From the sequence record OR924452: a stretch of DNA of 64,000 bases; one strand, written 5' to 3'. The position numbers were made by a program, and so were the translations under genes. Origin of the DNA: Escherichia phage 241. A model generated the notes under the pieces. The model searched no databases and was not told the DNA's origin. It saw nothing but the letters and a program-made list of their open reading frames with translations. Positions 1,725-63,508 of this stretch are shown here, in pieces. Within the stretch, counting starts at the first letter, position 1; each line of letters starts with the position of its first letter.

Positions 1725-1794
1725 CATAACAGTTCCTCAAGTCAGTTCACTTTCACTTTAAATACCTCTGCAATCACTGCGGAGGTATTTTCTT

Positions 1795-3534: not shown

Positions 3535-3618
3535 ATACCACACGAACTTCCCCGTCGCCTTCAATCCATGGAGGCGACGTATAATAACAGCCTGCATTAA
3601 CACAAACCGAGGATCGCT

Positions 3619-8113: not shown

Positions 8114-8452
8114 ATGTACAAATTCCCGATATTAGAAACAGTGTACTCTGTTCACAAAAAGGAAGGTCCATTATTTGAAAATTTGGATATTCTGTTAAAG
8201 GAAAATGTCCGTATCCCTCTGGTTCTAAAGGGAAAGCAAATAGGATATAGCCATGACTGCCAAATAATGCGTTCTGAAGGCACCGACGTCTTACGCATCC
8301 GTCTAACATTTGTGTTGACAGGTAATCTGGACGGTATGGTGGTTAATCTGAAACCAACCACCATAGTCCACAGAACGGGTGGGAAAATATTATATCGTTT
8401 ATTAACTCATTTTGAGTTGGTGACAAAATGCTCTGCCACGGACGTTCTTTAA
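8114..8452 (+). CDS. hypothetical protein (112 aa)
   Basis: ORF immediately after the upstream stop. Confidence 0.45.
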   Translation: MYKFPILETVYSVHKKEGPLFENLDILLKENVRIPLVLKGKQIGYSHDCQIMRSEGTDVLRIRLTFVLTGNLDGMVVNLKPTTIVHRTGGKILYRLLTHFELVTKCSATDVL

Positions 8453-8833
8453 TCAATTTGTCCGTTTCAACCATATGGTGTCTGTTATCGGCTCTGGGTT
8501 GTTGACCACATAAAACGTTATGGTTACACCCAGAGAATGATAATCTTCAGACAATGACACATCAACTGATTGTATCTCCGCTCTCGGTTCAAATAAAGCA
8601 ATCGCGTCTTCAACTTTGTTTTTAACATCAACCTGAATTGTGGGATTCGTATTTTCCCCCAGCATGGTATACAGCCCAGCCCCGATACTTGGGTATGTCG
8701 GCCAATCCCCAACTGTTGTCATCACGATATTTCGTACGGATTGCAACACGGCATAGACACCTGTTTTCTTTGTGACATCTTTGGTGACCGGATGCATGCC
8801 AAACTTCAGGTCAATGTCCTTGTACTCTTTCAT
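8453..8833 (-). CDS. 25: baseplate wedge protein, gp25/GPW family
   Basis: About 127 aa; pattern DIDL...IVMTTVGDWPTYPSIGAGLYTMLGEN parallels T4 gp25 (..IITTRKGSRPFDPEFGCDLSDQLFEN..); AAAGGGG RBS before ATG at 8833. Confidence 0.7.
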   Translation of the reverse strand: MKEYKDIDLKFGMHPVTKDVTKKTGVYAVLQSVRNIVMTTVGDWPTYPSIGAGLYTMLGENTNPTIQVDVKNKVEDAIALFEPRAEIQSVDVSLSEDYHSLGVTITFYVVNNPEPITDTIWLKRTN

Positions 8834-8897
8834 GTTAAACCCCTTTGGATATTGCCTCTCCGGCACGAGAGGGCATTATCTACCCTCGCCAGTGTAA

Positions 8898-10523
8898 TCA
8901 TGCGTCTTTACCACCAAAGTTGCCGCCATTATCCTCCAGTTCCGGTTTTATATCAATTGGACCAGGACCAGAAGTAGATACCGGAGTTGCCCCAGCGCGT
9001 GATGCAGCACGACCAGCACCTTCAGCATATTTGATGTTGCCTTCAATAGTCTGCGCCACCGACAACTTATCACAAACTATTTCACTAGCCAGTATTTTAG
9101 GCACTTTTAAAGTATTGGAAACTTCCAACATCTCACAGATGATACGCATCACGTTTTGCGCCTGAATTTCGGCCAGCTGTGAAAATTTCATCAACGCCGT
9201 GCCAGCAACCACATTGGAGTAGTTCGATGAATGTAGATGATAGACCTCACCTGTCTTGCGCTGAACTTCAGTCCCACCAATGGTCAGGTTGTGATCACGA
9301 CCAACATAGTAACGTTTGTCAAACATCGTCAGATCATAATGATCTTTGACTGATTTATTGACCACGTCCCCGTCAGGAAGCATCTGCTTATAAGACCCCG
9401 AGGAGTGCATCCAATGGAGACGTTCCCCGCCTGGTGTGTCATCAACCTCCATGATATGCCCTGACCGAGATGCCATGACATTGTTGTAAGGATAACGAGA
9501 CCCGCCAGCAGAAGGAACCGACACCTCTCCTGTGTTATCAATATCTTGAACACGCCCAGAAGGAGGCGGAGTTTCCTGAACTTTTGGTGTACGATCAGGG
9601 ATTGGCTCAGACCATTTACCATTTTGTTGTGTAGGAGCCGCCGATGCTGTCGTAGCAGGACCAGGCCAACGATAACCCAACACAGATGAGCGGCTGAAGC
9701 GACTCACCTTCACAGAATCTGATTGGTTGCCTCCAATACACCAAACATAATTGGCATCGAATTTCTGTACAAACGCAACGTGTCCAAATGTTGGGTTGTT
9801 GCCACGACGGAATACAACAACTGCGCCGTAACGGGGTTCTGACAAAGGGGAACCCCATTGCAAATATGAACGAGCCAAAGCCGAGCGCGTTGAAGTGTAT
9901 CCTGCTTGGATCAACACCCATCCCACAAATGAAGCGCACCAGCTGACTTCATCTTCCGAAGCGCCCAAAGATGTTGTCTTGTGATATTCCAAAATCCTTG
10001 GGTTATTATTGAATTTGCCAGAATATTCTTTGACACCTAATTCACCACGAGCCACTGTCATCCATTTCTCGGGATCATAACCGTCCACAGGCGGTTGAGG
10101 TTCTGGTTGTGGGTCGTCTTCAATCTTGACAGGAACATTTTCAACGGCGTTATATTTCTGTCTTTCTATAGATTGAACAACCTGGCCCAGCGCCAACGGG
10201 TTTGTGTCTGAACCATCCGTTGGTGTCGCCGCTGGCCAAACCCAGGCGATACGAATATTTTGGTATGCTTCATCCAAAGCAAATCCCATAACATCCGACC
10301 CGACTGTAATACCCGTTGGAGACCAGCCTAAACCTGCCGAGGAGGCGTTGGATGCTGGCATGAGCATTTTACCCCAAGGCAATAATTCGGTAGGTAAGAG
10401 AGTGGTATCTTCCGTGTGTACGCCATAGATGCGCACAGCGACGCGCCCGTTCTGGTCGGGATCATTCACGTCTTCAACGCGCCCGTAAAACCAACGCAAG
10501 TTGTCTAACATATTGAAACCCAT
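8898..10523 (-). CDS. 5: baseplate hub / tail-associated cell-wall hydrolase, gp5-like, with a CHAP/NlpC-P60-type domain in place of the T4 lysozyme domain
   Basis: N-terminus RWFYGRVEDVNDPDQNGRVAVRIYGVHTED resembles the gp5 N-terminal OB domain; central region has a Cys...His pattern (SWCASFVGW ... GHVAFV) typical of CHAP amidase/peptidase domains. Confidence 0.6.
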   Translation of the reverse strand: MGFNMLDNLRWFYGRVEDVNDPDQNGRVAVRIYGVHTEDTTLLPTELLPWGKMLMPASNASSAGLGWSPTGITVGSDVMGFALDEAYQNIRIAWVWPAATPTDGSDTNPLALGQVVQSIERQKYNAVENVPVKIEDDPQPEPQPPVDGYDPEKWMTVARGELGVKEYSGKFNNNPRILEYHKTTSLGASEDEVSWCASFVGWVLIQAGYTSTRSALARSYLQWGSPLSEPRYGAVVVFRRGNNPTFGHVAFVQKFDANYVWCIGGNQSDSVKVSRFSRSSVLGYRWPGPATTASAAPTQQNGKWSEPIPDRTPKVQETPPPSGRVQDIDNTGEVSVPSAGGSRYPYNNVMASRSGHIMEVDDTPGGERLHWMHSSGSYKQMLPDGDVVNKSVKDHYDLTMFDKRYYVGRDHNLTIGGTEVQRKTGEVYHLHSSNYSNVVAGTALMKFSQLAEIQAQNVMRIICEMLEVSNTLKVPKILASEIVCDKLSVAQTIEGNIKYAEGAGRAASRAGATPVSTSGPGPIDIKPELEDNGGNFGGKDA

Positions 10524-11030
10524 TAGTCAATTAGAATCATGGGTTATTTATGGCGGGGATTTGAAATCTGTCGAATAGTAATATTATAGGAAGCTCTGCT
10601 TCCGTTCAACTTTATTCTTTTCGTTTCTACTCGCTGAAGCTCGTAACACCGCCTTGACAGGCAGTCCCATTCCAATGCCATGGAGGCATAAAGGCGAGGA
10701 AAATACTGTACACCTCAGAACATGCGTAGAAAAGGATTATTTTTGCTTCAAAACAAATTCAAACCCCAATTTACACAACACTTACTTCAGCAACAACGGT
10801 GTTATAGCAATTTAAGGTTAAACGTTCCTGTCTTAACCTATAAAACAGGTAAGCAAAGAAAACCCCACATTACGTGGGGTTGGAAGATTTCTTGGACAAA
10901 CGTATCTTTAGTGTCTCTGTTAGCAAATCAAGATGCCAAGGCATCGACTCGCTTATTTCAAATATGCTATAGCCATGTGCCTTTAATTCGTCACACATCA
11001 CAAAGTAGGAGAGTAAATCAATTTCAAAAA

Positions 11031-11834
11031 TTAAATGAAAATTTCAGTGACACTGTTAAATTTGACTTCATGTTCTTTCCCACACGAAGGACATTTAATT
11101 TTCGTCGCGTAACGGATACGAGGAATCTTTTTAAAGAAATCGTCGGATATATCTTGAACAATCTCAGATTCAATATTTTCCCCCACCCATTTAACAAATT
11201 CATCTTTGACACGTTGACGTTCTTTAGCAACATCAGGTGCTATGCCAGGCTCTGCCGGATTCTCTACTTTCCAAACCTGACCATCATCGTCATACAAACA
11301 ATCAATAAATGTCGCGATCATTTGCTCCACAGATGATGCTTCGTTGAGCACTGAGGCGTCCGAGAAGGACGGTTGACGCATCTTGATGTGATAGCCACCA
11401 GGGAGGTCAAATGTTTCCCTGAAGCCTTCTGGGGACACGCATTTCACTTGGTTGAGGGGGATCGGTAAAACAAGTTCTTGACCACATTCTTTAAGGCCAG
11501 AAACTGGTTCTTCACCTTCATTTGTGTCGGATGGAACTTTGTTGTTACATTTGTATCGTATCTTCATGACCTCGCCGATAGATATACAGCGCATCTTTAA
11601 AAATACTTCTTCAGTAACACCGATTGGCAGTTTACTAAAGGGAACCCCAGCGTCAACACAACTATCAAACAGTTGCTCCAGCGTCGCTACACGTTCACTC
11701 ATAGGAGTGTTCGGATCAGCAACCTGAAGTAACATGGTCTGTTGCCCTGCTGTGAAAGCGCGGTATTTAATCACCGTCGGCCAGAAATCACTTTTGTGTG
11801 TTCTCTCAGTTTTGGGCAATGATGGTAAATTCAT
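11031..11834 (-). CDS. late structural protein, probably baseplate-associated; C-terminal CPSCGKEH zinc-ribbon-like motif
   Basis: GGAGA RBS before ATG at 11834; T4-type late promoter TATAAATA about 29 nt upstream; adjacent to gp5. Confidence 0.5.
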   Translation of the reverse strand: MNLPSLPKTERTHKSDFWPTVIKYRAFTAGQQTMLLQVADPNTPMSERVATLEQLFDSCVDAGVPFSKLPIGVTEEVFLKMRCISIGEVMKIRYKCNNKVPSDTNEGEEPVSGLKECGQELVLPIPLNQVKCVSPEGFRETFDLPGGYHIKMRQPSFSDASVLNEASSVEQMIATFIDCLYDDDGQVWKVENPAEPGIAPDVAKERQRVKDEFVKWVGENIESEIVQDISDDFFKKIPRIRYATKIKCPSCGKEHEVKFNSVTEIFI

Positions 11835-11862
11835 AATGTATCTCCACGGTATATTGTAACCA

Positions 11863-11870
11863 TATTTATA
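11863..11870 (-). promoter_or_regulatory. T4-type late promoter (TATAAATA)
   Basis: Exact TATAAATA on the minus strand about 29 nt upstream of the ATG at 11834. Confidence 0.5.
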
Positions 11871-11883
11871 ATGAGGACCGAAA

Positions 11884-12408
11884 ATGCACGCGTTCTGTTT
11901 CAGTAAAGTTGGAGAACAACTTACCATTAATTATCCGGATACAAATACGGATTTCTTTGTATTGCTAACGGATTTCGCAAATAAATTGGGGATCAAGAAT
12001 ATCGCCATGACTGTGGACGATATGAAATTTGGTCGTCTGGGTGTAAAAGATTTATTGAATTACGGATTCAACGTAATCATTGTCGATCAGACATACAGCC
12101 CAATTGACGAGGAAGATGTTATTCCAGTTTGGGTTCAACGAGACATAAACACTCTGGATAAGCATTATCCCGATTGTGTCATCATTGGCGAATTAATACC
12201 ATATTTTCATAAACGTCGTCGGCTTGAATCAATTAAAAGTTATTTTCAAGATAGCGATGACGGATATAAAATGGATGTCCTTACGAGCGGTTGGGTTGTG
12301 AAGAATACCACAGGCAATGCCGACCGAATTACTTCCCGTCTTTATGAATATGTTAAAGAACGGGATTATGAACTGGAGAACAATAATGCCAAACGTAGAA
12401 CGCGCTGA
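11884..12408 (+). CDS. hypothetical protein (174 aa)
   Basis: ORF diverging from the late gene; GAGGA RBS. Confidence 0.45.
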   Translation: MHAFCFSKVGEQLTINYPDTNTDFFVLLTDFANKLGIKNIAMTVDDMKFGRLGVKDLLNYGFNVIIVDQTYSPIDEEDVIPVWVQRDINTLDKHYPDCVIIGELIPYFHKRRRLESIKSYFQDSDDGYKMDVLTSGWVVKNTTGNADRITSRLYEYVKERDYELENNNAKRRTR

Positions 12409-12871
12409 TATTCAGCAGGTACAAGACGTCATCCTTCAACGCCTCCGCGCCGTGATCACAAATGAAAAGGGAGAAATTGCGCCAGGGTTTGAAGGCGCAT
12501 TCGACAGTTTCGTTGCCGATGACCAGGGGAACCCCGTTGTACAAACGATCGCTGGCATGATTATGCTGAATAGCGAATTTATGGCCGATGGTAAAATCCA
12601 TTATTCTCCCAATCTCAGTGTTGACGGAGAATCTTTGGCTTCCGAAGTGGTTGATTTAACGGTTGCCGTTGGTGAGTTGGGTTATGTTTTGATGGTTTGC
12701 ACCGCGCATTATGTGGACGCCAACGGCCATGTGTCATATGGTGATGAAGCGCGGGGAATCAAACGTCATGTGGATACTGCGGCAGTTCTGCAACAGATCC
12801 GCCAGATGCAAGACAATATGGATTCCAAACCCCGCCTGATTTTGCCAGATAGTAAAATCGTGACAAGATAA
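12386..12871 (+). CDS. hypothetical protein (161 aa)
   Basis: GGAGA RBS before internal ATG at 12386 (track ORF starts at 12317). Confidence 0.45.
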   Translation: MPNVERADIQQVQDVILQRLRAVITNEKGEIAPGFEGAFDSFVADDQGNPVVQTIAGMIMLNSEFMADGKIHYSPNLSVDGESLASEVVDLTVAVGELGYVLMVCTAHYVDANGHVSYGDEARGIKRHVDTAAVLQQIRQMQDNMDSKPRLILPDSKIVTR

Positions 12872-12908
12872 TCCGGTCTAAATACCCATAACACAATGAA
12901 ACTTCGTT

Positions 12909-13520
12909 ATGGGTATTTTTATGAAATTTTGCGGAATCGACTATTCTTATGGCTGTCCTGCCATGTGCTTCTGGGATGATAAAGATCCTTTGGATTTTGA
13001 CCATCTTCATTTCTATGCGCATCATACTGTAGAAAAACATTGTCGTCAGGTACGGCATAACATCCTCATTTTACGCCAGCCGAAATATGAATCCCCAGAA
13101 GAACGCTTCTACAATATCTCCAAATGGGCCGAAGCTGTTCTTCTAACCGAGAAGCCTGATTTCATCACCCTTGAGGGGTACGCAATGGGCAACTCGAAGA
13201 ATTCCAATAACATATGCCAGACTGCTGAAAATACATCTTTATTGAAGCAAGCAATGCGCCGGAATAATATGGAATTCCAGATCGTTACTCCTTCTTTCGT
13301 TAAAAAGCATTTCTGTGGTAAAGGAAACGCCGATAAATTGGTAATGATCGATCATTTCGAGAAGCTGTTCAACGTTAAGATGCGTGGTATAATGGACATG
13401 TTGGACGTGAAGGATCCAAAGCCTATCGATGATCTTGTAGACTCATTCGCAAACATGGTGTCTGGACCTTACTTCATAGAAAATTATCCCGATTTCAATA
13501 GAGGTGTAAGAAATGATTAA
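12909..13520 (+). CDS. possible RuvC-like Holliday-junction resolvase
   Basis: N-terminal MKFCGIDYSYG resembles the RuvC GID motif, with a later acidic TLEGYA and C-terminal IDDLVDSFA; weak; two in-frame ATGs (12909, 12921). Confidence 0.35.
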   Translation: MGIFMKFCGIDYSYGCPAMCFWDDKDPLDFDHLHFYAHHTVEKHCRQVRHNILILRQPKYESPEERFYNISKWAEAVLLTEKPDFITLEGYAMGNSKNSNNICQTAENTSLLKQAMRRNNMEFQIVTPSFVKKHFCGKGNADKLVMIDHFEKLFNVKMRGIMDMLDVKDPKPIDDLVDSFANMVSGPYFIENYPDFNRGVRND

Positions 13521-13809
13521 TTACTGGCTGTTGGCAGATATACTGCTTTTCGCCTTGCTGTTGATAACGGCATTTATTTGGGTTAAGGGATTTCTGACAT
13601 TCCTACACTCGTTGAGCGCCATGATATCTTTCTATGCTGTGTCCCCCCATAGTGACGTCAATGTACGAGCGGCAAATCAATCTGACATGTTGGCTGAATA
13701 CGTCATGATGCGTGATAAAGCAACCAGGATCGTCCTGTTTTCTACACTGGCGGGGGCGGTTATTATATTCATACAACACGTCTTGGAGGCAACTCATGCC
13801 GTTTTATGA
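13513..13809 (+). CDS. small membrane protein (98 aa, hydrophobic)
   Basis: ORF with GAGGTG RBS; predicted TM helices. Confidence 0.4.
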   Translation: MINYWLLADILLFALLLITAFIWVKGFLTFLHSLSAMISFYAVSPHSDVNVRAANQSDMLAEYVMMRDKATRIVLFSTLAGAVIIFIQHVLEATHAVL

Positions 13810-14041
13810 TTATGCCTGTACAGGTTGTGGTAATTCTTTCAGTACCAGAAGGTCTTGTGCTGAACGCCATACGCCTGAATTAGATCCATGCGCTGAATGT
13901 GGCGGTGAAATCAAAATGGTCATTGGAGCACCAAAGATCGTATCTGGTGTCCGTGGCCCACAATCCGCACCTGATGGCTTCAAAGACGTATTGCGTCATA
14001 TTAAGAAGCAGTCTGGGAAGGGGAATACAATCGATGTCTGA
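13796..14041 (+). CDS. zinc-ribbon protein (FmdB-like CxxC...CxxC)
   Basis: MPFYDYACTGCG...CAECGG; GGAGG RBS before ATG at 13796. Confidence 0.5.
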   Translation: MPFYDYACTGCGNSFSTRRSCAERHTPELDPCAECGGEIKMVIGAPKIVSGVRGPQSAPDGFKDVLRHIKKQSGKGNTIDV

Positions 14042-14276
14042 CCAACAAATAGCACAAGTCCTTACACCTGATTCATTCTCAGAATTGGTGTTGATGCGAG
14101 CGAGCCAACGCAAGGAGTCTATTCTTGAAACGATGGCCAGTGTTTGTGAAGAGTACGACATCGAAGAGGCGAAAGTTAAGAAACTGATTACACCACCTCT
14201 CCTGTCAAGGCTAACAGCTGAATGTTCTGATGCTCGGTTGTTGAAGGGTGAATTGAAATCTAAAAAACTCATTTAA
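14034..14276 (+). CDS. hypothetical protein (80 aa)
   Basis: GAAGGGG RBS, ATG at 14034, overlaps upstream stop. Confidence 0.45.
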   Translation: MSDQQIAQVLTPDSFSELVLMRASQRKESILETMASVCEEYDIEEAKVKKLITPPLLSRLTAECSDARLLKGELKSKKLI

Positions 14277-14285
14277 GGTTGTAAC

Positions 14286-14525
14286 ATGAGCAAAGAGCAA
14301 ATTTATAAATTGTTGAAGGCGCAAGAGTATCTGCCAGGTTCTATTCGCTGGCGTCATGGTAGCCTCAACGAACATGCTGATGATATGGATCGCGTTCGTT
14401 TCACAACGCCGGAAGGTAAATCCTATGTCATCGAGTACCATACATTCTTGGAAGGTCATAAAACCTTCTCGGATGTGTACGATATTATTGAGATAGACCC
14501 AGCAAAACAAATGATTGCGGGTTAA
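14286..14525 (+). CDS. hypothetical protein (79 aa)
   Basis: ORF. Confidence 0.45.
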   Translation: MSKEQIYKLLKAQEYLPGSIRWRHGSLNEHADDMDRVRFTTPEGKSYVIEYHTFLEGHKTFSDVYDIIEIDPAKQMIAG

Positions 14526-14549
14526 CTCAATAGCAAAAGGCAGTATAAT
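14526..14549 (+). promoter_or_regulatory. putative promoter upstream of gp32 (TCAATAG box, 10 nt spacer, TATAAT)
   Basis: CTCAATAG-caaaaggcag-TATAAT, about 70 nt upstream of the gp32 ATG. Confidence 0.35.
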
Positions 14550-14621
14550 TACATCGTCGGAATAATAGACAAATACATTTACAGAATAGCCCGAAGGGGC
14601 GGATTATAGAGGAATAATAAA

Positions 14622-15659
14622 ATGGGTAATTTATTTGATCGTCTTAAACAATCTCGTGGCCAACAAGCCGAAGCCATGCAACAGCGTCTCGCTCAGCAAG
14701 GTCAGCGTGTTGGTGGCGGTCGTGACCCGCGCATCTGGAAGTGGACTTGGAATGAAAAAGGCACTTCCGAAAACATTATTCGTTTCCTGCCTATCCCTTT
14801 AGTGGACATGAAGGCTCAAGAAGAAGGCACCATCCCTGAAGATGCTGTGTTAACTCCATGCGCCATGATCATGAAACACGCTTTCCAGGGTGCTGGCGGC
14901 TGGTATATCGAAAACTCACCTCAGACTTTCGGTAACGATGATCCGGTTCGTGACCATGATCGTCCTCTGTGGGCACAACAGAAAGAAACGAACGATGAAA
15001 AACTGAAGACGGTCCTGAAAAAACGTCTGCCGGACACCAAATACTACGCCAACATTCTAGTGATCAAAGATGGCAATAATCCGGAAAATAACGGCAAGGT
15101 CTTCTTGCTGGAATTCGGTAATGCCGTCAAGAAAATCCTGGATTCGGCTCAGAATCCTAAGTTCTCAACCGACCCGAAATTCGACCCGTTCGATATGTGG
15201 GAAGGTGCGAATCTGATTCTTAACCTGTTCGGCGAAGAGAAAGAGTTCGGAAACTGGAAAGGCCTGGTTGCCAACTTCACCAACGTGAAGTGGGATAGTC
15301 CGGCACCGCTGGGAACCGACGAATACATTGAAGAGATCTGGGAAAAAGAGCACAGCTTGTTTGAGTTCTTTAATCCGGCCAACTTCAAATCGTACGAAGA
15401 TCTGGAAAAACGTTTGCGCAAAGTTCTGGCCATCCCTGATAATCAGCCTCTGGTTGAAGGCGGTGCTTCTACTATGGCACATGCGCCTACCCAGTCTCAG
15501 GAACCCCAGCGCCCTACAGCGCAGGAAAGTCTGAACCAACAACAATCTCAGCCTTCTAATGCACAGCAATCTGTTCCAGCCAATAATGGTGGTGCGGGTG
15601 CCGATGCGAAACAGACGGCTTCCATTGATGAGTTCGAGCAGTTCCTGAAGCAAGACTAA
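14622..15659 (+). CDS. 32: single-stranded DNA-binding protein, gp32 family
   Basis: Shares IRFLP, WYIE, ANILV.KD...PEN.GKVF and WEGAN blocks with T4 gp32; acidic C-terminal tail; codon-optimised. Confidence 0.85.
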   Translation: MGNLFDRLKQSRGQQAEAMQQRLAQQGQRVGGGRDPRIWKWTWNEKGTSENIIRFLPIPLVDMKAQEEGTIPEDAVLTPCAMIMKHAFQGAGGWYIENSPQTFGNDDPVRDHDRPLWAQQKETNDEKLKTVLKKRLPDTKYYANILVIKDGNNPENNGKVFLLEFGNAVKKILDSAQNPKFSTDPKFDPFDMWEGANLILNLFGEEKEFGNWKGLVANFTNVKWDSPAPLGTDEYIEEIWEKEHSLFEFFNPANFKSYEDLEKRLRKVLAIPDNQPLVEGGASTMAHAPTQSQEPQRPTAQESLNQQQSQPSNAQQSVPANNGGAGADAKQTASIDEFEQFLKQD

Positions 15660-15667
15660 TTTCACTA

Positions 15668-15687
15668 AAGCCCCTTCGGGGGCTTTT
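15668..15687. terminator. bidirectional rho-independent terminator between convergent genes
   Basis: AAAGCCCCTTCGGGGGCTTTTT. Confidence 0.65.
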
Positions 15688-16631
15688 TAGTTTTTAACGA
15701 CGTCTTGTAACAAACCGAGTAAACTACTCTTCTCAGACGCCGTCAGGTTATCATTGCCTAATATATCCCTCTGGATGCCGATAGAGATCCTTTCGAAGTC
15801 TGCCAGGCTGATACCCGCCAAATTATTTACAAGCTGATCGAGTTGCTTGTAGGCCAGTAGGGCTTCACCTGTAAAGTTCCCTTCCTTAATCTTTTTATAC
15901 AGCTGTCCGGCTTTTGACGCTGCGGTTTCCCAATCTCCGGAAGCAAGAGCATCAGCAATGCCCAAAGGAAGAAAGTCGCTGGCGAGGCTGCGCGTTTCAT
16001 ATTCAGTCTCCGATAATACTTTATTGTAAGAGAACGATATATTGTACTGGTTAAATTGGTCGGCGGCACTTTTGTCGAGGTCGATGGAACTGAAGTTAAT
16101 AGGATGAGCCTCCGTCACATAAACACGGTGCACCACCTGGTCTTCTGTATCCATTTGCTCTATACAAATATCAGTCACGAAATCTTCGTAATAACCCATC
16201 TTGGTCGTATATGGGTCGAATATCAAATTCTTCCATTTATCCATGACCGACTTTTCATAATAGTCGTTGGCAAGGAGAAACGATAACTCCAGATCAACGT
16301 TTGTTTTGTTGTTCGGCATCTTAATGTGGTTGCCGTTATTTGTCATTGGCGTTGTATCAATCCCAGTACCAGGCAAAGAAGCAACCATACACATCATTTG
16401 TAAGGAACGAGACGTCTGGTTTGTCCCTCCAAAGAAAGCGTTTACAATACGGGCGCTTTGTTTGAACAGATCCCCAAATGATGAAGATGAAGGATATGCG
16501 TTGCCGTCATTGGATAGAGTCGCATTAGAATCGAAAATACCAGGCGGCAACGGGATTGTAACACGAAATCTGTTCTTGCGGGAAATCCCCCGCTGAAGCA
16601 GTTGCGTTAGAAAATTGCGATAGTCTTCCAC
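15687..16631 (-). CDS. late structural protein, possibly baseplate or tail-tube associated
   Basis: Long ORF; start set at in-frame GTG 16631 (GGAG 10 nt upstream) because the track start at 16826 would overlap the divergent gene and its RBS; TATAAATA late promoter upstream. Confidence 0.4.
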   Translation of the reverse strand: MEDYRNFLTQLLQRGISRKNRFRVTIPLPPGIFDSNATLSNDGNAYPSSSSFGDLFKQSARIVNAFFGGTNQTSRSLQMMCMVASLPGTGIDTTPMTNNGNHIKMPNNKTNVDLELSFLLANDYYEKSVMDKWKNLIFDPYTTKMGYYEDFVTDICIEQMDTEDQVVHRVYVTEAHPINFSSIDLDKSAADQFNQYNISFSYNKVLSETEYETRSLASDFLPLGIADALASGDWETAASKAGQLYKKIKEGNFTGEALLAYKQLDQLVNNLAGISLADFERISIGIQRDILGNDNLTASEKSSLLGLLQDVVKN

Positions 16632-16665
16632 GATGAGGACTCCATTTAAATAATATATCTGCTGA

Positions 16666-16673
16666 TATTTATA
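16666..16673 (-). promoter_or_regulatory. T4-type late promoter (TATAAATA)
   Basis: Exact TATAAATA on the minus strand about 35 nt upstream of the proposed start at 16631. Confidence 0.5.
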
Positions 16674-16685
16674 AGGAGTTGACAA

Positions 16686-17390
16686 ATGGCCAAGAACGCT
16701 ATGGGTGAAGAAGACCCGTTGTTGCTTCCTGCCGAGATGGACGCCCCAGAATTGGTCAAGCGTTACATCCGCAAATATCGTCAACATTTTGGACCAGAAG
16801 CGAAACGTAATATCCGTCGGTCTCACGTGTGGTTTATGGAACGCGTATCGAAAGATGCCAATTTATCCCCCAACCACATGATGAAGGCGTTTGCTGAAAA
16901 TAAACGTCCTGTTCAGGGTGTGCGCTATATTGTTGGTCGCATGTACTATTTCAAATATGATGCGCTGACCAAAGATGAACTCCCGTATTGGGATATGTAT
17001 CCTCTTGTATTCTTCTTCAATTTTGTGAAGGGTGACGGGGTAAAATTTGGGGAACGTGGTGTGACCTATCTTTATGGTCTCAACCTTCATTATTTGCCAC
17101 CAAAGCTCAGATTATTAGTGTTTGAAGATCTTATCAAGTTGAGGAACGAAAGAGCGTATCGTTCTAAAACTCGTTTGAGACTTACTTGGGATGCCCTGAA
17201 ACGGTTCGCCAATCACCCTCTATACAACCATTGTGTGAAACTGTACCGCGCTGATCAATTTCGTTCACAGCTTTATGAGATTGAGCCTCAATACTGGGAA
17301 GTTGTTTTGTTTATGCGCACTGCTCGATTCCAGAAACAGAGCCAGATGTCTGTTTGGAAAGACGCTCGTCGTAAACACAAAAATGGTTAG
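16686..17390 (+). CDS. hypothetical protein (234 aa), basic C-terminus
   Basis: AAGGAG RBS 7 nt before ATG; terminator downstream. Confidence 0.5.
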   Translation: MAKNAMGEEDPLLLPAEMDAPELVKRYIRKYRQHFGPEAKRNIRRSHVWFMERVSKDANLSPNHMMKAFAENKRPVQGVRYIVGRMYYFKYDALTKDELPYWDMYPLVFFFNFVKGDGVKFGERGVTYLYGLNLHYLPPKLRLLVFEDLIKLRNERAYRSKTRLRLTWDALKRFANHPLYNHCVKLYRADQFRSQLYEIEPQYWEVVLFMRTARFQKQSQMSVWKDARRKHKNG

Positions 17391-17396
17391 TTCTAA

Positions 17397-17430
17397 AAGC
17401 CGTTCTATGGGATAATTCGCGAACGGCTTT
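17397..17430 (+). terminator. rho-independent terminator
   Basis: AAAGCCGTTC...GAACGGCTTT hairpin with T-rich tail. Confidence 0.5.
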
Positions 17431-17452
17431 CTATAAACATGAGGTTCCATAT

Positions 17453-18184
17453 ATGTCATATCTACACAGAATTTTTGGTATTGAATTCAGTTCCAACAGC
17501 GTTCGTTATGACCGCACTCACAAAGACTCCGGCGGCAAGACTGGTTACGAACTTGGATCTCGTTTGGGGTATACTGAAGAGCGCCGCCTGAGCGAAAATT
17601 CTCTTCTCACAGCTATGGGTATTGAATTTGAATCCGAGGCTGCTTTAGATCTGGGGGATGAGGTTCGTTTTGGTAAGCCTGAAGTCTTAGAATTTGTTGA
17701 AGACTTCGTGACAGGTTATACCCATGCCGCTAACAATCGTCGCGCCGCCAATGATGCTGTTGGTAAATTTCATTTTGCTGTGAAATACCTTGCCGACAAG
17801 CGTATTCAAATGGAAGCCGAATTCAGTGAAGAAAACTTGAAAGCAGTTTTCGGAGAGACTGGCGATTTCCTGTTGACAGAAGAATCCGGCACTTCTTCCG
17901 CTCGTCATTTCTTTAGTCAACCGTTTATCGTGAAGGGATGTAAAATTCTGATTGATGAAGAACATGTTTTTGGTATTCATCCGGATGTTGTATACGATGA
18001 AGAGACGTGTCTGATCATTTCCAGATTGTTTAACAGCCTGGCGTACACTTCATATTCATTGATCGAACGCTGTATGGAAGAAGAGCATCGCCAAGTTGTT
18101 GTCAACAAAATTCGCTTACATGTTGAGCAGAATTTTAATGGATTCCATTGCGCGTCTGGTGAGATTCCAAACTTCTACATGTAA
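17453..18184 (+). CDS. hypothetical protein (243 aa)
   Basis: ORF with GAGG RBS. Confidence 0.45.
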   Translation: MSYLHRIFGIEFSSNSVRYDRTHKDSGGKTGYELGSRLGYTEERRLSENSLLTAMGIEFESEAALDLGDEVRFGKPEVLEFVEDFVTGYTHAANNRRAANDAVGKFHFAVKYLADKRIQMEAEFSEENLKAVFGETGDFLLTEESGTSSARHFFSQPFIVKGCKILIDEEHVFGIHPDVVYDEETCLIISRLFNSLAYTSYSLIERCMEEEHRQVVVNKIRLHVEQNFNGFHCASGEIPNFYM

Positions 18185-18201
18185 AGATATCAGGGGGCTG
18201 T

Positions 18202-18489
18202 ATGAAGAAATATGTTCGTCTGAACACTGTACTTGAATCAGTTATAGAATATTTCATAATGCAGCACCTCAGAGCAGAAAATGAACACGTGAGCGACGCT
18301 CTGACTTATGATCACCGGATAGTGGTTCATTCCGTCGAAATAGTGGATGACGAATTGTTGATTGCCAATGTTGAGCATGCTCTCTGGGATGAAGTGTTAG
18401 ATCAGTACGTTCAACCGAAGTTCACACAGATCGAGTTATCTGCCATGTGGCCACCTGAAACAGTTTTCAATATTGATATACAAAGTTAA
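18202..18489 (+). CDS. hypothetical protein (95 aa)
   Basis: ORF with GGGGG RBS. Confidence 0.45.
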   Translation: MKKYVRLNTVLESVIEYFIMQHLRAENEHVSDALTYDHRIVVHSVEIVDDELLIANVEHALWDEVLDQYVQPKFTQIELSAMWPPETVFNIDIQS

Positions 18490-18662
18490 TATTCACGTCA
18501 GTCCGCGCTATTCCAGCGTTCCGTTGTCTAACACAGAAGTGTTAACCAACTTTTCAATAAAAAGTGGTTTACATCTTCTAAAAAGGCAGTATATTAATGT
18601 TCCAGACGCACAGTTGAACATTAAACTGCCAAAGAAGGTTACTACACAAAAGGGTTTTTATT

Positions 18663-23047: not shown

Positions 23048-24117
23048 TGGCTCGCATGCTCAAGACAGCAAAGAAATTGGATCCGAATGCCGAAGTGCTG
23101 TCTAAAACCGATGCGCTGAAGCCTGATATTATTTGTAGCACGGGTATTCCTATCCTGAATTTGGCCTGGTCTGGTCGTATTGATGGTGGGCTGATATCTG
23201 GTATTAAGCAGTTGGTGGGTGATTCTCGTACATTCAAAACCATGTTTGGTCTGGTAGATGTCAAGGCTTACATGGACAAGTTTCCCGACGCAATTTGTAT
23301 CTTCGCGGATTCGGAAGGCGGCGCGAATGAAAACTATTGGACGTCCATGGGTATCGACATGGATCGTGTTTTATATCTGCCGATCGAAAACGTTGAAAAG
23401 ACGAAGATCAAGCTGACTCAACTTCTGAATGATGCCCAAAAAGGCGATAAAATCATCGTCTTTATTGACTCAATCAGCCAGTTGCCGTCTACCAAAGAAG
23501 TGGATGACGCCATCGCGGGTAAAGATACACAAGATATGACCCGCGCTCGTGCTCTCAATAGTTTTTGGCGTGTCATCACTCCGTTGGTCACTGAAAAGAA
23601 ATTCGTTTTGGTGTGGATCAACTCTTATTATGATGAAATCGGGAACCAGTATGCCGAACCAAATATCAAAGGCGGTAAGCAAGGTTTCCTATCATCTAAC
23701 CAATTGTGGTTCATCACCCGTTCTCAAGTTAAGGAAGACAAAGATCTTCTGGGTTGGCAATTCACTGTTAACATCATGAAAGGCCGCTTTGTTCGTGAAA
23801 AAGCCAAGTTCCCTGTGACGGTATTGTATGAAGGCGGTATTGACCGTTGGTCTGGCATGTTGGAAATTGCACGCATGCTGGGATATGTTGATCTGGTGAG
23901 CGGTTCCTGGTATCAGCGTACAGCCAAAGGCGGGTTTGATCCAGAGAAAGAGAAGAAATATCGCAAGTCAGAGCTGGGGGATGACTTCTGGTATCCACTG
24001 CTGGAAAACCCAGATTTTGTTGACGATGTAAACAATATGTTCGGTATCTCTCAGAGTTCGGTTATGCCTGCAGATATGCTGGAGCGTCTCGATCATGTCA
24101 TCAAAACAACCGAGTAA
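23032..24117 (+). CDS. uvsX: RecA-like recombinase UvsX
   Basis: Extensive colinearity with T4 UvsX (PILNLAWSGRIDGG, VFIDSISQL, DMTRA, GYQFTVNIMKGRFVREK). Confidence 0.9.
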   Translation: MADSLMARMLKTAKKLDPNAEVLSKTDALKPDIICSTGIPILNLAWSGRIDGGLISGIKQLVGDSRTFKTMFGLVDVKAYMDKFPDAICIFADSEGGANENYWTSMGIDMDRVLYLPIENVEKTKIKLTQLLNDAQKGDKIIVFIDSISQLPSTKEVDDAIAGKDTQDMTRARALNSFWRVITPLVTEKKFVLVWINSYYDEIGNQYAEPNIKGGKQGFLSSNQLWFITRSQVKEDKDLLGWQFTVNIMKGRFVREKAKFPVTVLYEGGIDRWSGMLEIARMLGYVDLVSGSWYQRTAKGGFDPEKEKKYRKSELGDDFWYPLLENPDFVDDVNNMFGISQSSVMPADMLERLDHVIKTTE

Positions 24118-24424
24118 TATTGCAGGGGGAGGAGACTCCCCCGTTAATTACAAAATCATCGACCCTGGTTCTGATCAGTTAGCTATTATCGAAATAACGG
24201 AAGGCAAGTTCCGCGGTGTTCAATTTCGTGTAGGAAAAGTGGGTGTCCATGTAGACAATGGAGAACCTCGGTTATCCTTTACGACGGATATATTGAAGAA
24301 GCCATGGCGTTTGTTATTTGTTAATTTGAAAGAAAATGACTTGTTCACTGTGGTGTCTGGGGATATCTTAGTTGATCTGATACAGCAAAATGCTCAGGAT
24401 TACAACAAAATTTTGGTGGGGTAG
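24095..24424 (+). CDS. hypothetical protein (109 aa), in the position T4 gene 40 occupies between uvsX and 41
   Basis: ORF; positional analogy only. Confidence 0.4.
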   Translation: MSSKQPSNIAGGGDSPVNYKIIDPGSDQLAIIEITEGKFRGVQFRVGKVGVHVDNGEPRLSFTTDILKKPWRLLFVNLKENDLFTVVSGDILVDLIQQNAQDYNKILVG

Positions 24425-28762: not shown

Positions 28763-28817
28763 TTCAATAACTGTTTCACCCATATAATACATGGGAATTT
28801 ACAGAAGGAACACAACT

Positions 28818-38090: not shown

Positions 38091-38142
38091 GGTCTGAAGC
38101 CCTTAATTAGAATAGAGTAATGACACTATTTAGGACTAGAAT

Positions 38143-52145: not shown

Positions 52146-52233
52146 TGTTGGAGCCTCGAATTTACGTTCCGCTCATGGGGAACATAAAAATTATACCCTT
52201 AGACACAACAATGAAAAAGAGGCCGAAGCCTCT

Positions 52234-60434: not shown

Positions 60435-60468
60435 GAGGATAGAGCAATAATACCCTATCCCCCTTTAT
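60435..60468 (-). terminator. terminator hairpin with AATAAT loop; one of two near-identical intergenic elements
   Basis: GAGGATAG-agcaataatacc-CTATCC with flanking T-tract on the minus strand; followed by the shared TTTATTGAAGAACG. Confidence 0.5.
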
Positions 60469-60478
60469 TGAAGAACGA

Positions 60479-63244: not shown

Positions 63245-63274
63245 GGGGAACGGGCTAATAATAACCCATTCCCC
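63245..63274 (-). terminator. terminator hairpin with TAATAATAA loop; second copy of the repeated intergenic element
   Basis: GGGGAACGGG-ctaataataa-CCCATTCCCC, T-rich flank on the minus strand. Confidence 0.5.
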
Positions 63275-63302
63275 TTTATTGAAGAACGCAATCGCAGTCA
63301 GA

Positions 63303-63470
63303 TTACTTTTTCTTCAGCTCTTCCAGCTTGGCTTCAATTTGGTCCAGGATTTCTTTACCTTTCTGGACGATGGCTTCACCGTCTTGCGCGTGTTTACGAA
63401 AAACCAGAGCGCCAGCAATGAAACCAACAACCACGCCTGGGAGCGCATACACCAACAGATCTTGTAACAT
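63303..63470 (-). CDS. small membrane-anchored protein (55 aa), below the ORF-track cutoff
   Basis: GAGGA RBS; translation MLQDLLVYALPGVVVGFIAGALVFRKHAQDGEAIVQKGKEILDQIEAKLEELKKK. Confidence 0.3.
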   Translation of the reverse strand: MLQDLLVYALPGVVVGFIAGALVFRKHAQDGEAIVQKGKEILDQIEAKLEELKKK

Positions 63471-63508
63471 GATTTATATCCTCACTTTTATAAGCAAGGA
63501 TATTTATA

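Follow-up and report, generated by a model that had tools for sequence, protein, structure and literature searches.

Two divergent gene junctions of the DNA analysed here carry on the minus strand the octamer TATAAATA, the late-promoter box of phage T4, close to the translation signals of the gene on the other strand. This arrangement raises the questions of whether the two boxes direct late transcription and whether their crowding against the opposite gene has a regulatory meaning. The window, by which we mean the whole 64 000-nucleotide stretch, comes from a Vi01-like Kuttervirus (Ackermannviridae) and is 99.5–100% identical to sequenced phages (in the tested segments, 99.7% to Sa157lw and Mooltan, 99.5% to Vi01 and 100% to PS5). 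The phage type is well known, and in all likelihood the two boxes are promoters of its late genes; we assign a probability of about 0.85 to the whole explanation, in which both are −10-type late promoters read by a gp55-like polymerase. The finding of late boxes at divergent junctions is correct yet ordinary, being already known, and represents no new kind of system. The features of the two junctions are as follows.

11830–11855, plus strand: candidate early-type promoter TTCATA-N14-TATATT, with three mismatches to the family motif TTCAAT-N14-TATAAT
11031–11834, minus strand: gp26 baseplate hub gene, RBS GGAG at 11842–11845 (Pfam PF12322, E = 1.5e-51; Mooltan and Vi01 annotation)
11863–11870, minus strand: gp26 late box TATAAATA, exact octamer; predicted start site near 11857, leader of about 23 nt
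11873–12408, plus strand: RBS GAGG (11873–11876) and gene for a hypothetical protein of 174 residues (11884–12408; phrog_3957)
15687–16631, minus strand: gp54 baseplate tail-tube initiator gene, GTG start at 16631 (not 16826), RBS GGAG at 16640–16643
16645–16652, plus strand: late box TTTAAATA of gp2 (DNA end protector); predicted start site near 16658
16666–16673, minus strand: gp54 late box TATAAATA, exact octamer; predicted start site near 16660
16673–17390, plus strand: gp2 RBS AAGGAG (16673–16678) and gp2 gene (16686–17390)

The exact minus-strand octamers that an earlier note had placed at these positions are both present (the plus strand reads TATTTATA), and their spacing upstream of minus-strand structural genes is borne out, with 28 nt between the 3′ end of the gp26 box (11863) and the gp26 ATG (11834) and 34 nt between the gp54 box (16666) and the gp54 GTG (16631). 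That note had also, rightly, argued against a start at 16826 for the open reading frame at 15687: both the GTG and its GGAG RBS are conserved, and in three genera the frame is closed by stop codons 4–11 codons upstream of the GTG. The gp54 annotation should begin at this conserved GTG; the Sa157lw annotation truncates the gene and the longest open reading frame over-extends it. On the plus strand, the 174-residue gene (ATG at 11884) opens a string of genes leading to RuvC, gp33 and gp32. At the second junction the gp54 box crosses a gp2 box, absent from the earlier note, with a variable 13-nt spacer between the two; the TTAAATA of the gp2 box is invariant in five genera, and the gp2 RBS, which serves the ATG at 16686, shares 1 nt with the gp54 box.

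The candidate plus-strand partner at the first junction would be of another kind. The family early motif TTCAAT-N14-TATAAT has no match with two or fewer mismatches at any of the junctions, and the first junction matches it only at three mismatches, a level reached by 145 sites in the window. The −10 part of this candidate ends 28 nt short of the ATG (11884) and reads TATAnT in all five genera compared (five of its six columns are invariant); conservation of the −35-like part is uninformative because it overlaps codons 1–2 of gp26. The site is thus a weak candidate for an early-type promoter, retained solely for its conservation. The plus-strand TATAAT at 11867–11872 was rejected as a promoter, being replaced by TATAGT, TATAAC or TATACA in relatives and lying only 11 nt from the ATG.

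The number of octamers is in itself uninformative: the window holds three exact copies, not above the 2.08 ± 1.49 of shuffled sequences, and the case therefore rests on placement. A search for the octamer upstream of structural genes, as proposed earlier, showed all three copies to be intergenic, co-oriented with the next gene and 28–34 nt upstream of its start codon. Positions 10–60 nt upstream of a co-oriented start make up only about 4% of strand positions, from which we derive P ≃ 6e-5 for three out of three. The four exact octamers of Vi01 are placed alike, so that both genomes have them 26–34 nt upstream of co-oriented starts. In an unbiased scan of 6-mers in the zone from −10 to −60, TAAATA ranked first of about 4060 words: of its 18 occurrences in the window, 10 fall in this zone (P = 3.3e-10), as do 29 of the 58 in Vi01 (P = 2e-27), at 21–49 nt from the start codon (median 30). 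The word is depleted about twofold overall (18 versus 36.4 ± 5.4 in shuffles) and about fourfold outside promoter positions, whereas permutations of the same composition occur 36–89 times each and show no comparable upstream enrichment. Divided by the preceding base, upstream placement was found for CTAAATA (16/23, P = 5e-19), ATAAATA (8/17, P = 3e-8) and TTAAATA (4/9, P = 1e-4), and was not significant for GTAAATA (1/9). The T4 octamer proposed earlier as the signal is hence only partly the right description: both boxes are real, but the family core is TAAATA, and TATAAATA is a minority variant of the ATAAATA class (four copies per 157 kb), the main structural operons using CTAAATA. We place both boxes in a family-wide regulon with the core TAAATA and a preceding base in the order C > A > T, in which the octamer belongs to the ATAAATA sub-class, and the baseplate-hub genes gp5, gp26 and gp54 use this sub-class. 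As a working consensus we suggest [C>A>T]TAA[A>T/G]TA, in place of the T4 octamer or CTAAATA alone. The genes behind late boxes are virion or morphogenesis genes (gp5, gp26, gp54, gp2, gp48, gp22, gp18, gp14, gp6 and TSP2–4). Further boxes in the window, including the third exact octamer and those of a third divergent junction (gp48/gp4), are the following.

1757–1764, plus strand: late box TTTAAATA in the leader hairpin of a gene for a peptidoglycan-binding (endolysin-like) virion protein
10545–10552, minus strand: gp5 late box CATAAATA (gp25 follows gp5); ATAAATA is kept in four other genera while the flanks diverge
12877–12884, plus strand: late box TCTAAATA in the leader hairpin of the RuvC-like resolvase gene
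38102–38109, plus strand: variant late box CTTAATTA of the head-completion gene gp4, with the ATG (38143) 33 nt downstream
38127–38134, minus strand: gp48 late box CCTAAATA (gp53 and two tail genes follow gp48), 7/7 positions invariant in six phages
63501–63508, minus strand: third exact TATAAATA, inside an RBS-sequestering hairpin; a 55-residue open reading frame (63303–63470) follows 30 nt downstream

Conservation was followed across Kuttervirus, Limestonevirus-like phages, Taipeivirus, Agtrevirus and Miltonvirus. Over these five genera the box cores are near-invariant while the spacers vary: at the gp54/gp2 junction 13 of 14 core positions are invariant as against four of 13 spacer positions (Fisher P = 0.0013), and the gp26 and gp48/gp4 junctions follow the same pattern. 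The footprint argument is weakened because the junctions are well conserved overall (72–88% column identity). The gp26 core is kept in four of the five genera, SKML-39 reading TATAATTA, and the gp54 core is substituted in one genus (TATAAGTA). Which base precedes the core depends on the gene and is kept across genera: gp5, gp26 and gp54 have A, gp2 has T and the abundant structural operons have C. The distance between crossing boxes is likewise kept, at 13–14 nt for gp54/gp2 and 16–18 nt for gp48/gp4, although the sequence between them varies. At the position of the variant gp4 box, Agtrevirus and Erwinia relatives have a canonical TTAAATA.

A check for homologues suggested earlier revealed factors that would read such boxes, gp33 in the window and gp55 in near-identical genomes, where a putative gp45 is annotated as well. 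The single member of the gp55/gp33/gp45 apparatus within the window is

14034–14276, plus strand: gp33 late-transcription co-activator (Pfam PF16805, E = 4.6e-19; phrog_254, E = 4e-23)

The gp55 homologue is Vi01_103c, which adjoins gp46/gp47, matches the 'late sigma transcription factor' family phrog_234 (E = 1.1e-53) and has copies of at least 99% identity in 27 records. Sequence searches of Pfam and the PDB with Vi01 gp55 gave no usable match, and T4 gp55, which is too diverged, was not recovered by tblastn with the family gp55; the nearest relatives outside the family found by tblastn were cyanophage gp55s (24–32% identity). Vi01_135c, which lies outside the window, is annotated as gp45, its match to PF09116 (21.2 bits, E = 3e-4) falling below the 25-bit cut-off. 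The earlier attribution of the boxes to gp55-type late transcription is thus supported by where the boxes lie and which way they point, by their enrichment over the genome and conservation between genera, and by the genes for gp33, gp55 and the putative gp45.

In T4 the late-promoter box occupies −13 to −6 relative to the start site (PMC1524935), and our predicted start sites, about 6 nt past each box, were derived from this rule, with which the 28 and 34 nt between box and start codon are compatible. By analogy with T4, the host core RNA polymerase carrying the phage gp55-like sigma factor, aided by gp33 and the gp45 clamp, would read the boxes late in infection. The gp26 and gp54 mRNAs would start about 6 nt downstream of their boxes, near 11857 and 16660, with leaders of 23–29 nt carrying the GGAG RBS, and the RNAs of a divergent pair would share no more than a few nucleotides, at their 5′ ends. 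The likeness to T4 late promoters extends to an identical octamer at two sites, the lack of a −35 element, short predicted leaders and virion-gene targets. It extends to the layout as well. All three divergent junctions of the window (gp26/hypothetical gene, gp54/gp2 and gp48/gp4) have two crossing −10-type elements 7–17 nt apart, each bordering on the RBS of the gene on the other strand; at gp48/gp4, the CC pair of the gp48 box is the GG of the gp4 RBS AGGA (38132–38135). The T4 gene 4/53 junction (47 nt) has TATAAATA on the plus strand and TATAAATA on the minus strand 7 nt apart, and these likewise cross and abut the GGAG-type RBS of the opposite gene; the gp48/gp4 junction, with gp4 beside the gp48–gp53 unit, is its syntenic counterpart. 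The phages differ in the base before TAAATA, preferentially C here and A in T4, and in the gap between boxes, 13–17 nt here as against 7 nt at T4 4/53. Moreover, the sigma factor here is only a distant relative of T4 gp55.

Two other readings of the boxes themselves have little probability. That they serve as −10 elements for host sigma-70, either ahead of gp55 or with no need of it, might be argued from TATAAA, which matches TATAAT at five of six positions, from the perfect plus-strand TATAAT at 11867–11872 and from the enrichment of TATAAT upstream of the genes of this phage (20/97, P = 7e-11). However, a consensus scan of 8300–17600 revealed no −35 partner at a spacing of 16–18 nt on the minus strand at either octamer junction, the family motif TTCAAT-N14-TATAAT is distinct and precedes non-structural genes, and the plus-strand TATAAT has the defects described above; the word enriched at the late boxes is TAAATA and the genes downstream are virion genes. 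We regard a sigma-70 origin as very improbable. Still less credible is the notion that the boxes are A/T-rich strings that arose by chance, or that they owe their conservation to some other role, such as that of an A/U-rich translational enhancer just 5′ of the opposite Shine–Dalgarno sequence. The chance-level octamer count and the location of each box 0–3 nt upstream of the RBS of the opposite gene would fit it, but neither the absence of comparable enrichment among 6-mers of equal composition nor the depletion of TAAATA away from promoter positions does, and the core stays the same from genus to genus amid variable flanks. The orientation-specific enrichment, furthermore, holds at the 24 of 29 Vi01 sites that lack a divergent partner because their upstream neighbour is co-oriented.

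A third proposal accepts the boxes as late promoters and makes their crossing regulatory, such that exclusive occupancy or polymerase collision would set the relative divergent output, or would shut off the candidate early promoter of the gp26 junction after gp55 polymerase has taken over. At each of the three junctions the predicted start sites on the two strands are 2–6 nt apart, the box spacing is kept despite a varying spacer sequence, and at the gp26 junction a late promoter faces a candidate early-type one. Two polymerases could hardly occupy one junction simultaneously if the predicted starts are right, but nothing marks this exclusion as regulatory. T4 shares the layout, the compaction of two leaders of about 25–35 nt into about 50 nt would produce the same arrangement, and the conserved spacing may reflect only conserved leader lengths. 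The overlap with the opposite gene's translation signals, from which the earlier note suggested interference, does exist, but is limited to the degenerate −13 and −12 positions of the boxes; it arises because two leaders are packed into junctions of 49–54 nt. A regulatory role for the crossing therefore seems unlikely to us, and we prefer to see the junctions as ordinary, closely packed late promoters.

Late motifs have been described in this family before. The motif CTAAATAcCcc of the Viunalikevirus/Ackermannviridae (Adriaenssens et al., 2012, as cited in PMC9965104 and PMC7283392) shares, in the form quoted there, the regulon and the TAAATA core with the boxes studied here; compared with that quoted form, both octamers have A rather than C at −12 and are followed by TATAAATAtggt and TATAAATAtcag rather than by a C-rich tract. 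Record OP991882.2 annotates a 'Kuttervirus late gene promoter' (CTAAATA) at the gp48 box and for RuvC, the latter feature being plotted 6 nt downstream of the RuvC CTAAATA; it holds no annotation of the gp26, gp54, gp2 and gp5 boxes. For phage AG3, prediction had placed late promoters in front of gp2 and gp5 (PMC3121705), and the CBA120 paper states that a late motif was not identified for this phage family. The late promoters of Aeromonas phage Aeh1 are CTAAATA (Nolan et al., 2006; PMC1524935), with the same dominant C at −12 and a diverged gp55; Aeh1 belongs to another phage family, and the present phages make significant use of A and T variants as well, in a gene-specific manner across genera. 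A search of the accessible literature yielded no transcriptome, start-site map or timing study for Kuttervirus or Ackermannviridae.

The leaders at the junctions show no RBS-sequestering hairpin (z = −0.86 for gp26, +0.40 for gp54, +0.66 for gp2 and +1.0 for gp48), and no Rfam family was matched in a scan of the whole window. Many other late boxes do lie within such hairpins, as in T4 e, soc and 49; examples are the genes for the peptidoglycan-binding protein (z = −5.3) and RuvC (z = −3.6) and Vi01 TSP2–4 (z ≃ −7). This suggests that the cCcc of the published motif serves as the 5′ arm of such a hairpin and not as part of the promoter. The downstream C-tract probably forms part of a translational lock, a point to bear in mind for constructs that borrow the promoter. 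A two-layer late control in Ackermannviridae, combining a graded promoter code with a genome-wide translational lock and not known to have been described for the family, is conceivable, but we put it forward tentatively, at somewhat less than even odds. In the promoter code, the base before TAAATA may set promoter strength, and crossing boxes at divergent junctions may enforce mutually exclusive firing. In the lock, cCcc may act as an anti-Shine–Dalgarno arm that silences read-through RNA, so that only RNA started at the late promoter is translated; if true, a device known for four T4 genes would be extended to at least 12 genes. For the leader of the third octamer, the hairpin evidence is that of Vi01 h200, with a free energy of −13.2 kcal/mol (z = −6.0). 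A rule by which hairpins accompany only boxes with a co-oriented upstream neighbour proved not to be strict, since Vi01 gp14 and gp6 have hairpins with a divergent or distant neighbour.

Megablast of positions 10500–18500 returned 176 phage records with at least 80% query coverage, the closest being Escherichia phage Sa157lw and Salmonella phage Mooltan (99.7%) and Vi01 (99.5%); Salmonella phage PS5 is 100% identical across two test segments of the window. These identities place the source, on sequence grounds, in Kuttervirus (Ackermannviridae; formerly 'ViI-like' or Viunalikevirus). Gene annotation was transferred from the curated Mooltan, Vi01 and Sa157lw records, and 3,894 of 64,000 bases (6.1%) are non-coding. 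Genome-wide tests used the assembled Vi01 genome (157,061 bp, 208 CDS), and conservation was assessed in Dickeya phage phiDP23.1, Klebsiella phage Menlow, Salmonella phage SKML-39 (Agtrevirus) and Serratia phage 3M (Miltonvirus), which are 67–80% identical. In the Sa157lw record MH427377, gp54 is truncated (start equivalent to 16394, an annotation error) and the RuvC-like gene (window 12909–13520) is mislabelled 'base plate hub subunit'; the Sa157lw HNH gene, between the 24095–24424 ORF and the helicase gene, is absent from the window.

The earlier note had reported two T4-type late-promoter octamers at divergent junctions, and this observation is confirmed: TATAAATA is accurately located on the minus strand at 11863–11870 and 16666–16673, and a third copy lies at 63501–63508 (minus). 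The octamer exceeds chance through its placement, not its number (3 in the window vs 2.08 ± 1.49 in shuffles). All three copies are intergenic, oriented as the next gene and 28–34 nt before its start; the zone 10–60 nt upstream of co-oriented starts comprises about 4% of strand positions, and by our own arithmetic the probability of three out of three is about 6e-5. Vi01 has only four exact copies, all in promoter position.

An unbiased 6-mer scan scored the enrichment of every word (about 4,060) in this upstream zone. TAAATA ranked first in the window: of its 18 copies, 10 lie in the zone (P = 3.3e-10), and 14 other 6-mers of the same composition displayed no comparable upstream concentration in the window. 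Its total is about two-fold below expectation (18 vs 36.4 ± 5.4 shuffled), and away from promoter positions about four-fold below, a scarcity expected if spurious late promoters are selected against. In Vi01, 29 of 58 copies fall in the zone (P = 2e-27), 21–49 nt (median 30) from the start codon, their targets including gp48, gp54, gp2, gp26, gp5, gp22, gp18 (sheath), gp14, gp6, TSP2-4, a 4.8-kb structural ORF and the ORF 3' of the portal gene. The preceding base at these sites is C (16), A (8), T (4) or G (1), and within the core only fourth-position substitutions are enriched.

Table. Late-box variants in the Vi01 upstream zone (in zone/total)
CTAAATA, 16/23, P = 5e-19
ATAAATA, 8/17, P = 3e-8
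TTAAATA, 4/9, P = 1e-4
GTAAATA, 1/9, not significant
TAATTA, 7/32, P = 8e-5
TAAGTA, 4/14, P = 1e-3

CTAATTA precedes gp19 and gp20 in Vi01, and CTAAGTA precedes gp23 (major capsid); these genes and gp4 (CTAATTA/TTAATTA at gp4, gp19 and gp20) are major structural genes without a canonical box. The genome-wide search proposed in the earlier note thus shows a real signal, but the late-box rule of the family is broader, [C>A>T]TAA[A>T/G]TA, and includes the T4 octamer only as a minority variant.

The TAAATA core before gp5, gp26, RuvC, gp2 and gp54 is in the same place in nearly all four comparison phages, with diverged flanks; the exceptions, in phiDP23.1 at gp54 (TATAAGTA) and in SKML-39 at gp26 (TATAATTA), carry the same substitutions tolerated in the Vi01 enrichment test. 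Invariant columns comprise 13/14 in the box cores vs 4/13 in the intervening spacer at gp54|gp2 (Fisher P = 0.0013), 6/7 in the box vs 2/7 in the spacer at the gp26 junction and, among six phages including Erwinia phage Bue1, 7/7 in the minus box, 6/7 in the plus box and 4/17 in the spacer at gp48|gp4. The base preceding TAAATA is kept per gene across genera (A at gp5, box 10545–10552, gp26 and gp54; T at gp2) and changes at RuvC (C, G or A); such per-gene fixation may reflect promoter strength tuned gene by gene.

At gp54|gp2 a second box, unnoticed in the earlier note, faces the first. The plus-strand order is as follows.

16631: GTG start of gp54 (15687–16631, minus)
16640–16643: CTCC, the gp54 RBS (GGAG on the minus strand)
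16645–16652, plus: second box, TTTAAATA, 33 nt before gp2
13-nt variable spacer
16666–16673, minus: TATAAATA, with gp54 starting 34 nt downstream
16673–16678, plus: gp2 RBS AAGGAG, sharing one base with the minus box
16686, plus: ATG of gp2

The TTAAATA of the gp2 box is invariant in five genera. Under the T4 rule (box at −13 to −6; PMC1524935), transcription would start at about 16658 (plus) and 16660 (minus). The longest gp54 ORF reaches 16826, within gp2 on the opposite strand. That start, already doubted from the promoter position, is ruled out by the GTG at 16631 and its RBS, both conserved in five genera, and by in-frame stops 4–11 codons upstream of the GTG in phiDP23.1, SKML-39 and 3M; this inference is independent of the promoter argument.

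At the other focal junction, gp26 starts 28 nt downstream of its box (RBS GGAG, 11842–11845), and the divergent hypothetical gene has its RBS GAGG at 11873–11876 and ATG at 11884. The plus-strand partner of the gp26 box is not a late box.

11031–11834, minus: gp26 baseplate hub gene (Pfam PF12322, E = 1.5e-51)
11830–11855, plus: candidate early-type promoter TTCATA-N14-TATATT, three mismatches from the family motif
3560–3585 and 28763–28788, plus; 52190–52215, 60447–60472 and 63258–63283, minus: early motif TTCAAT-N14-TATAAT, exact or with one mismatch

In each of the five genera the −10 element of the candidate reads TATAnT; it ends 28 nt short of the ATG, a distance similar to that in the family TTCAAT-N14-TATAAT promoters. 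The sequence may be an early-type promoter, though at three mismatches it is no more than a candidate, and may be the promoter of the plus-strand string hyp-hyp-RuvC...gp33-gp32. In Vi01, all five exact copies of the motif lie 28–37 nt before co-oriented starts. The gp26–gp5 gap (10524–11030) is 507 nt of non-coding sequence with a terminator-like hairpin (10861–10881, minus) and no Rfam match; Dickeya and Agtrevirus relatives have a 49-aa ORF annotated there.

The gp48|gp4 junction repeats the gp54|gp2 design: the CC of CCTAAATA (38127–38134, minus) is the GG of the gp4 RBS, and the plus-strand variant box CTTAATTA (38102–38109) is TTAAATA in Agtrevirus and Erwinia relatives. A homing-endonuclease ORF lies exactly at this junction in SPTD1 (545–1285), barely, SenALZ1 and Dickeya JA15, directly downstream of the gp48 late box on the other strand; no such insertion is present in the window, at 38091–38142. 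The syntenic counterpart of gp4|gp48-gp53 in T4, the 47-nt gene 4 | gene 53 junction, reads CAT-…CTCC-TATAAATA-7 nt-TATTTATA-…AGGAGGG-…ATG, with crossing boxes likewise each set against the opposite gene's RBS. Since the layout is the same, the architecture is a known T4-type design. The overlap of boxes with translation signals, emphasized previously, is present but confined to the degenerate −13/−12 positions, and is a requirement of packing two 23–29 nt leaders into about 50 nt. The suggested interference is physically plausible as polymerase competition, because the predicted start sites are 2–6 nt apart and two polymerases cannot co-occupy them.

Of the T4 late factors, sought as the earlier note proposed, gp33 has a homologue in the window and gp55 one in Vi01, outside it; a gp45 is annotated in Vi01, also outside the window, with a sub-threshold Pfam score.

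14034–14276: gp33 (PF16805, E = 4.6e-19)

The Vi01 gp55 homologue, Vi01_103c, adjoins gp46/gp47 and matches phrog_234, 'late sigma transcription factor' (E = 1e-53); by tblastn its nearest relatives beyond the family are cyanophage gp55s (24–32% identity), not T4. The first description of a CTAAATA-type preference came from Aeh1, whose gp55 is likewise diverged (PMC1524935), and the diverged Vi01 protein would fit such a preference. The late-promoter reading of the boxes, which we infer, is well supported.

Neither the architecture nor the motif is new, both having been described for T4 and Ackermannviridae. Seventeen late promoters, including those before gp2 and gp5, were predicted in AG3 from TATAAATA with one mismatch (PMC3121705), 33 were listed for LIMEstone, and one such family promoter has driven a reporter gene. 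In GenBank OP991882.2, CTAAATA carries the label 'Kuttervirus late gene promoter' upstream of gp48 and RuvC, with no such feature before gp26, gp54, gp2 or gp5; its promoter(8) feature is drawn 6 nt downstream of its CTAAATA (annotation error). The literature searched yielded no experimental start-site map for Kuttervirus or Ackermannviridae.

Many late boxes belong to strong hairpins, with the box in the 5' arm and the RBS in the 3' arm.

1757–1800, plus: leader of the PG-binding (endolysin-like) gene, −18 kcal/mol, z −5.3
12877–12914, plus: leader (listed to 12923) of the RuvC-like resolvase, −10.8 kcal/mol, z −3.6
10518–10552, minus: gp5 leader, z −2.9
63468–63508, minus: leader of the 63303–63470 ORF (Vi01 h200), z −6.0
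Vi01 TSP2-4 leaders: z about −7

Hairpin-embedded boxes also occur in the Vi01 h142, h183, gp14 and gp6 leaders; the four junction leaders (gp26, gp54, gp2 and gp48) form no such hairpin (z −0.9 to +1.0). In these hairpins (z −2.9 to −7), box-proximal ACCCC/ACCUC base-pairs with the RBS or the start codon, and the structure is lost if the RNA starts 6–7 nt past the box, the predicted late start. Five genera retain the RuvC hairpin, in which one compensatory pair occurs. This RBS-sequestering device, documented for T4 e, soc, 49 and I-TevI (PMC3014915), is present in at least a dozen genes here. The pairing points to the C-tract downstream of CTAAATA ('cCcc' in the published consensus) as an anti-Shine-Dalgarno arm. 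Annotations of the RuvC-like gene differ in the choice between two in-frame ATGs, at 12909 (Vi01) and 12921 (Mooltan); the 3' arm of the leader hairpin contains the first. The pair is reminiscent of T4 gene 49, which yields nested products.
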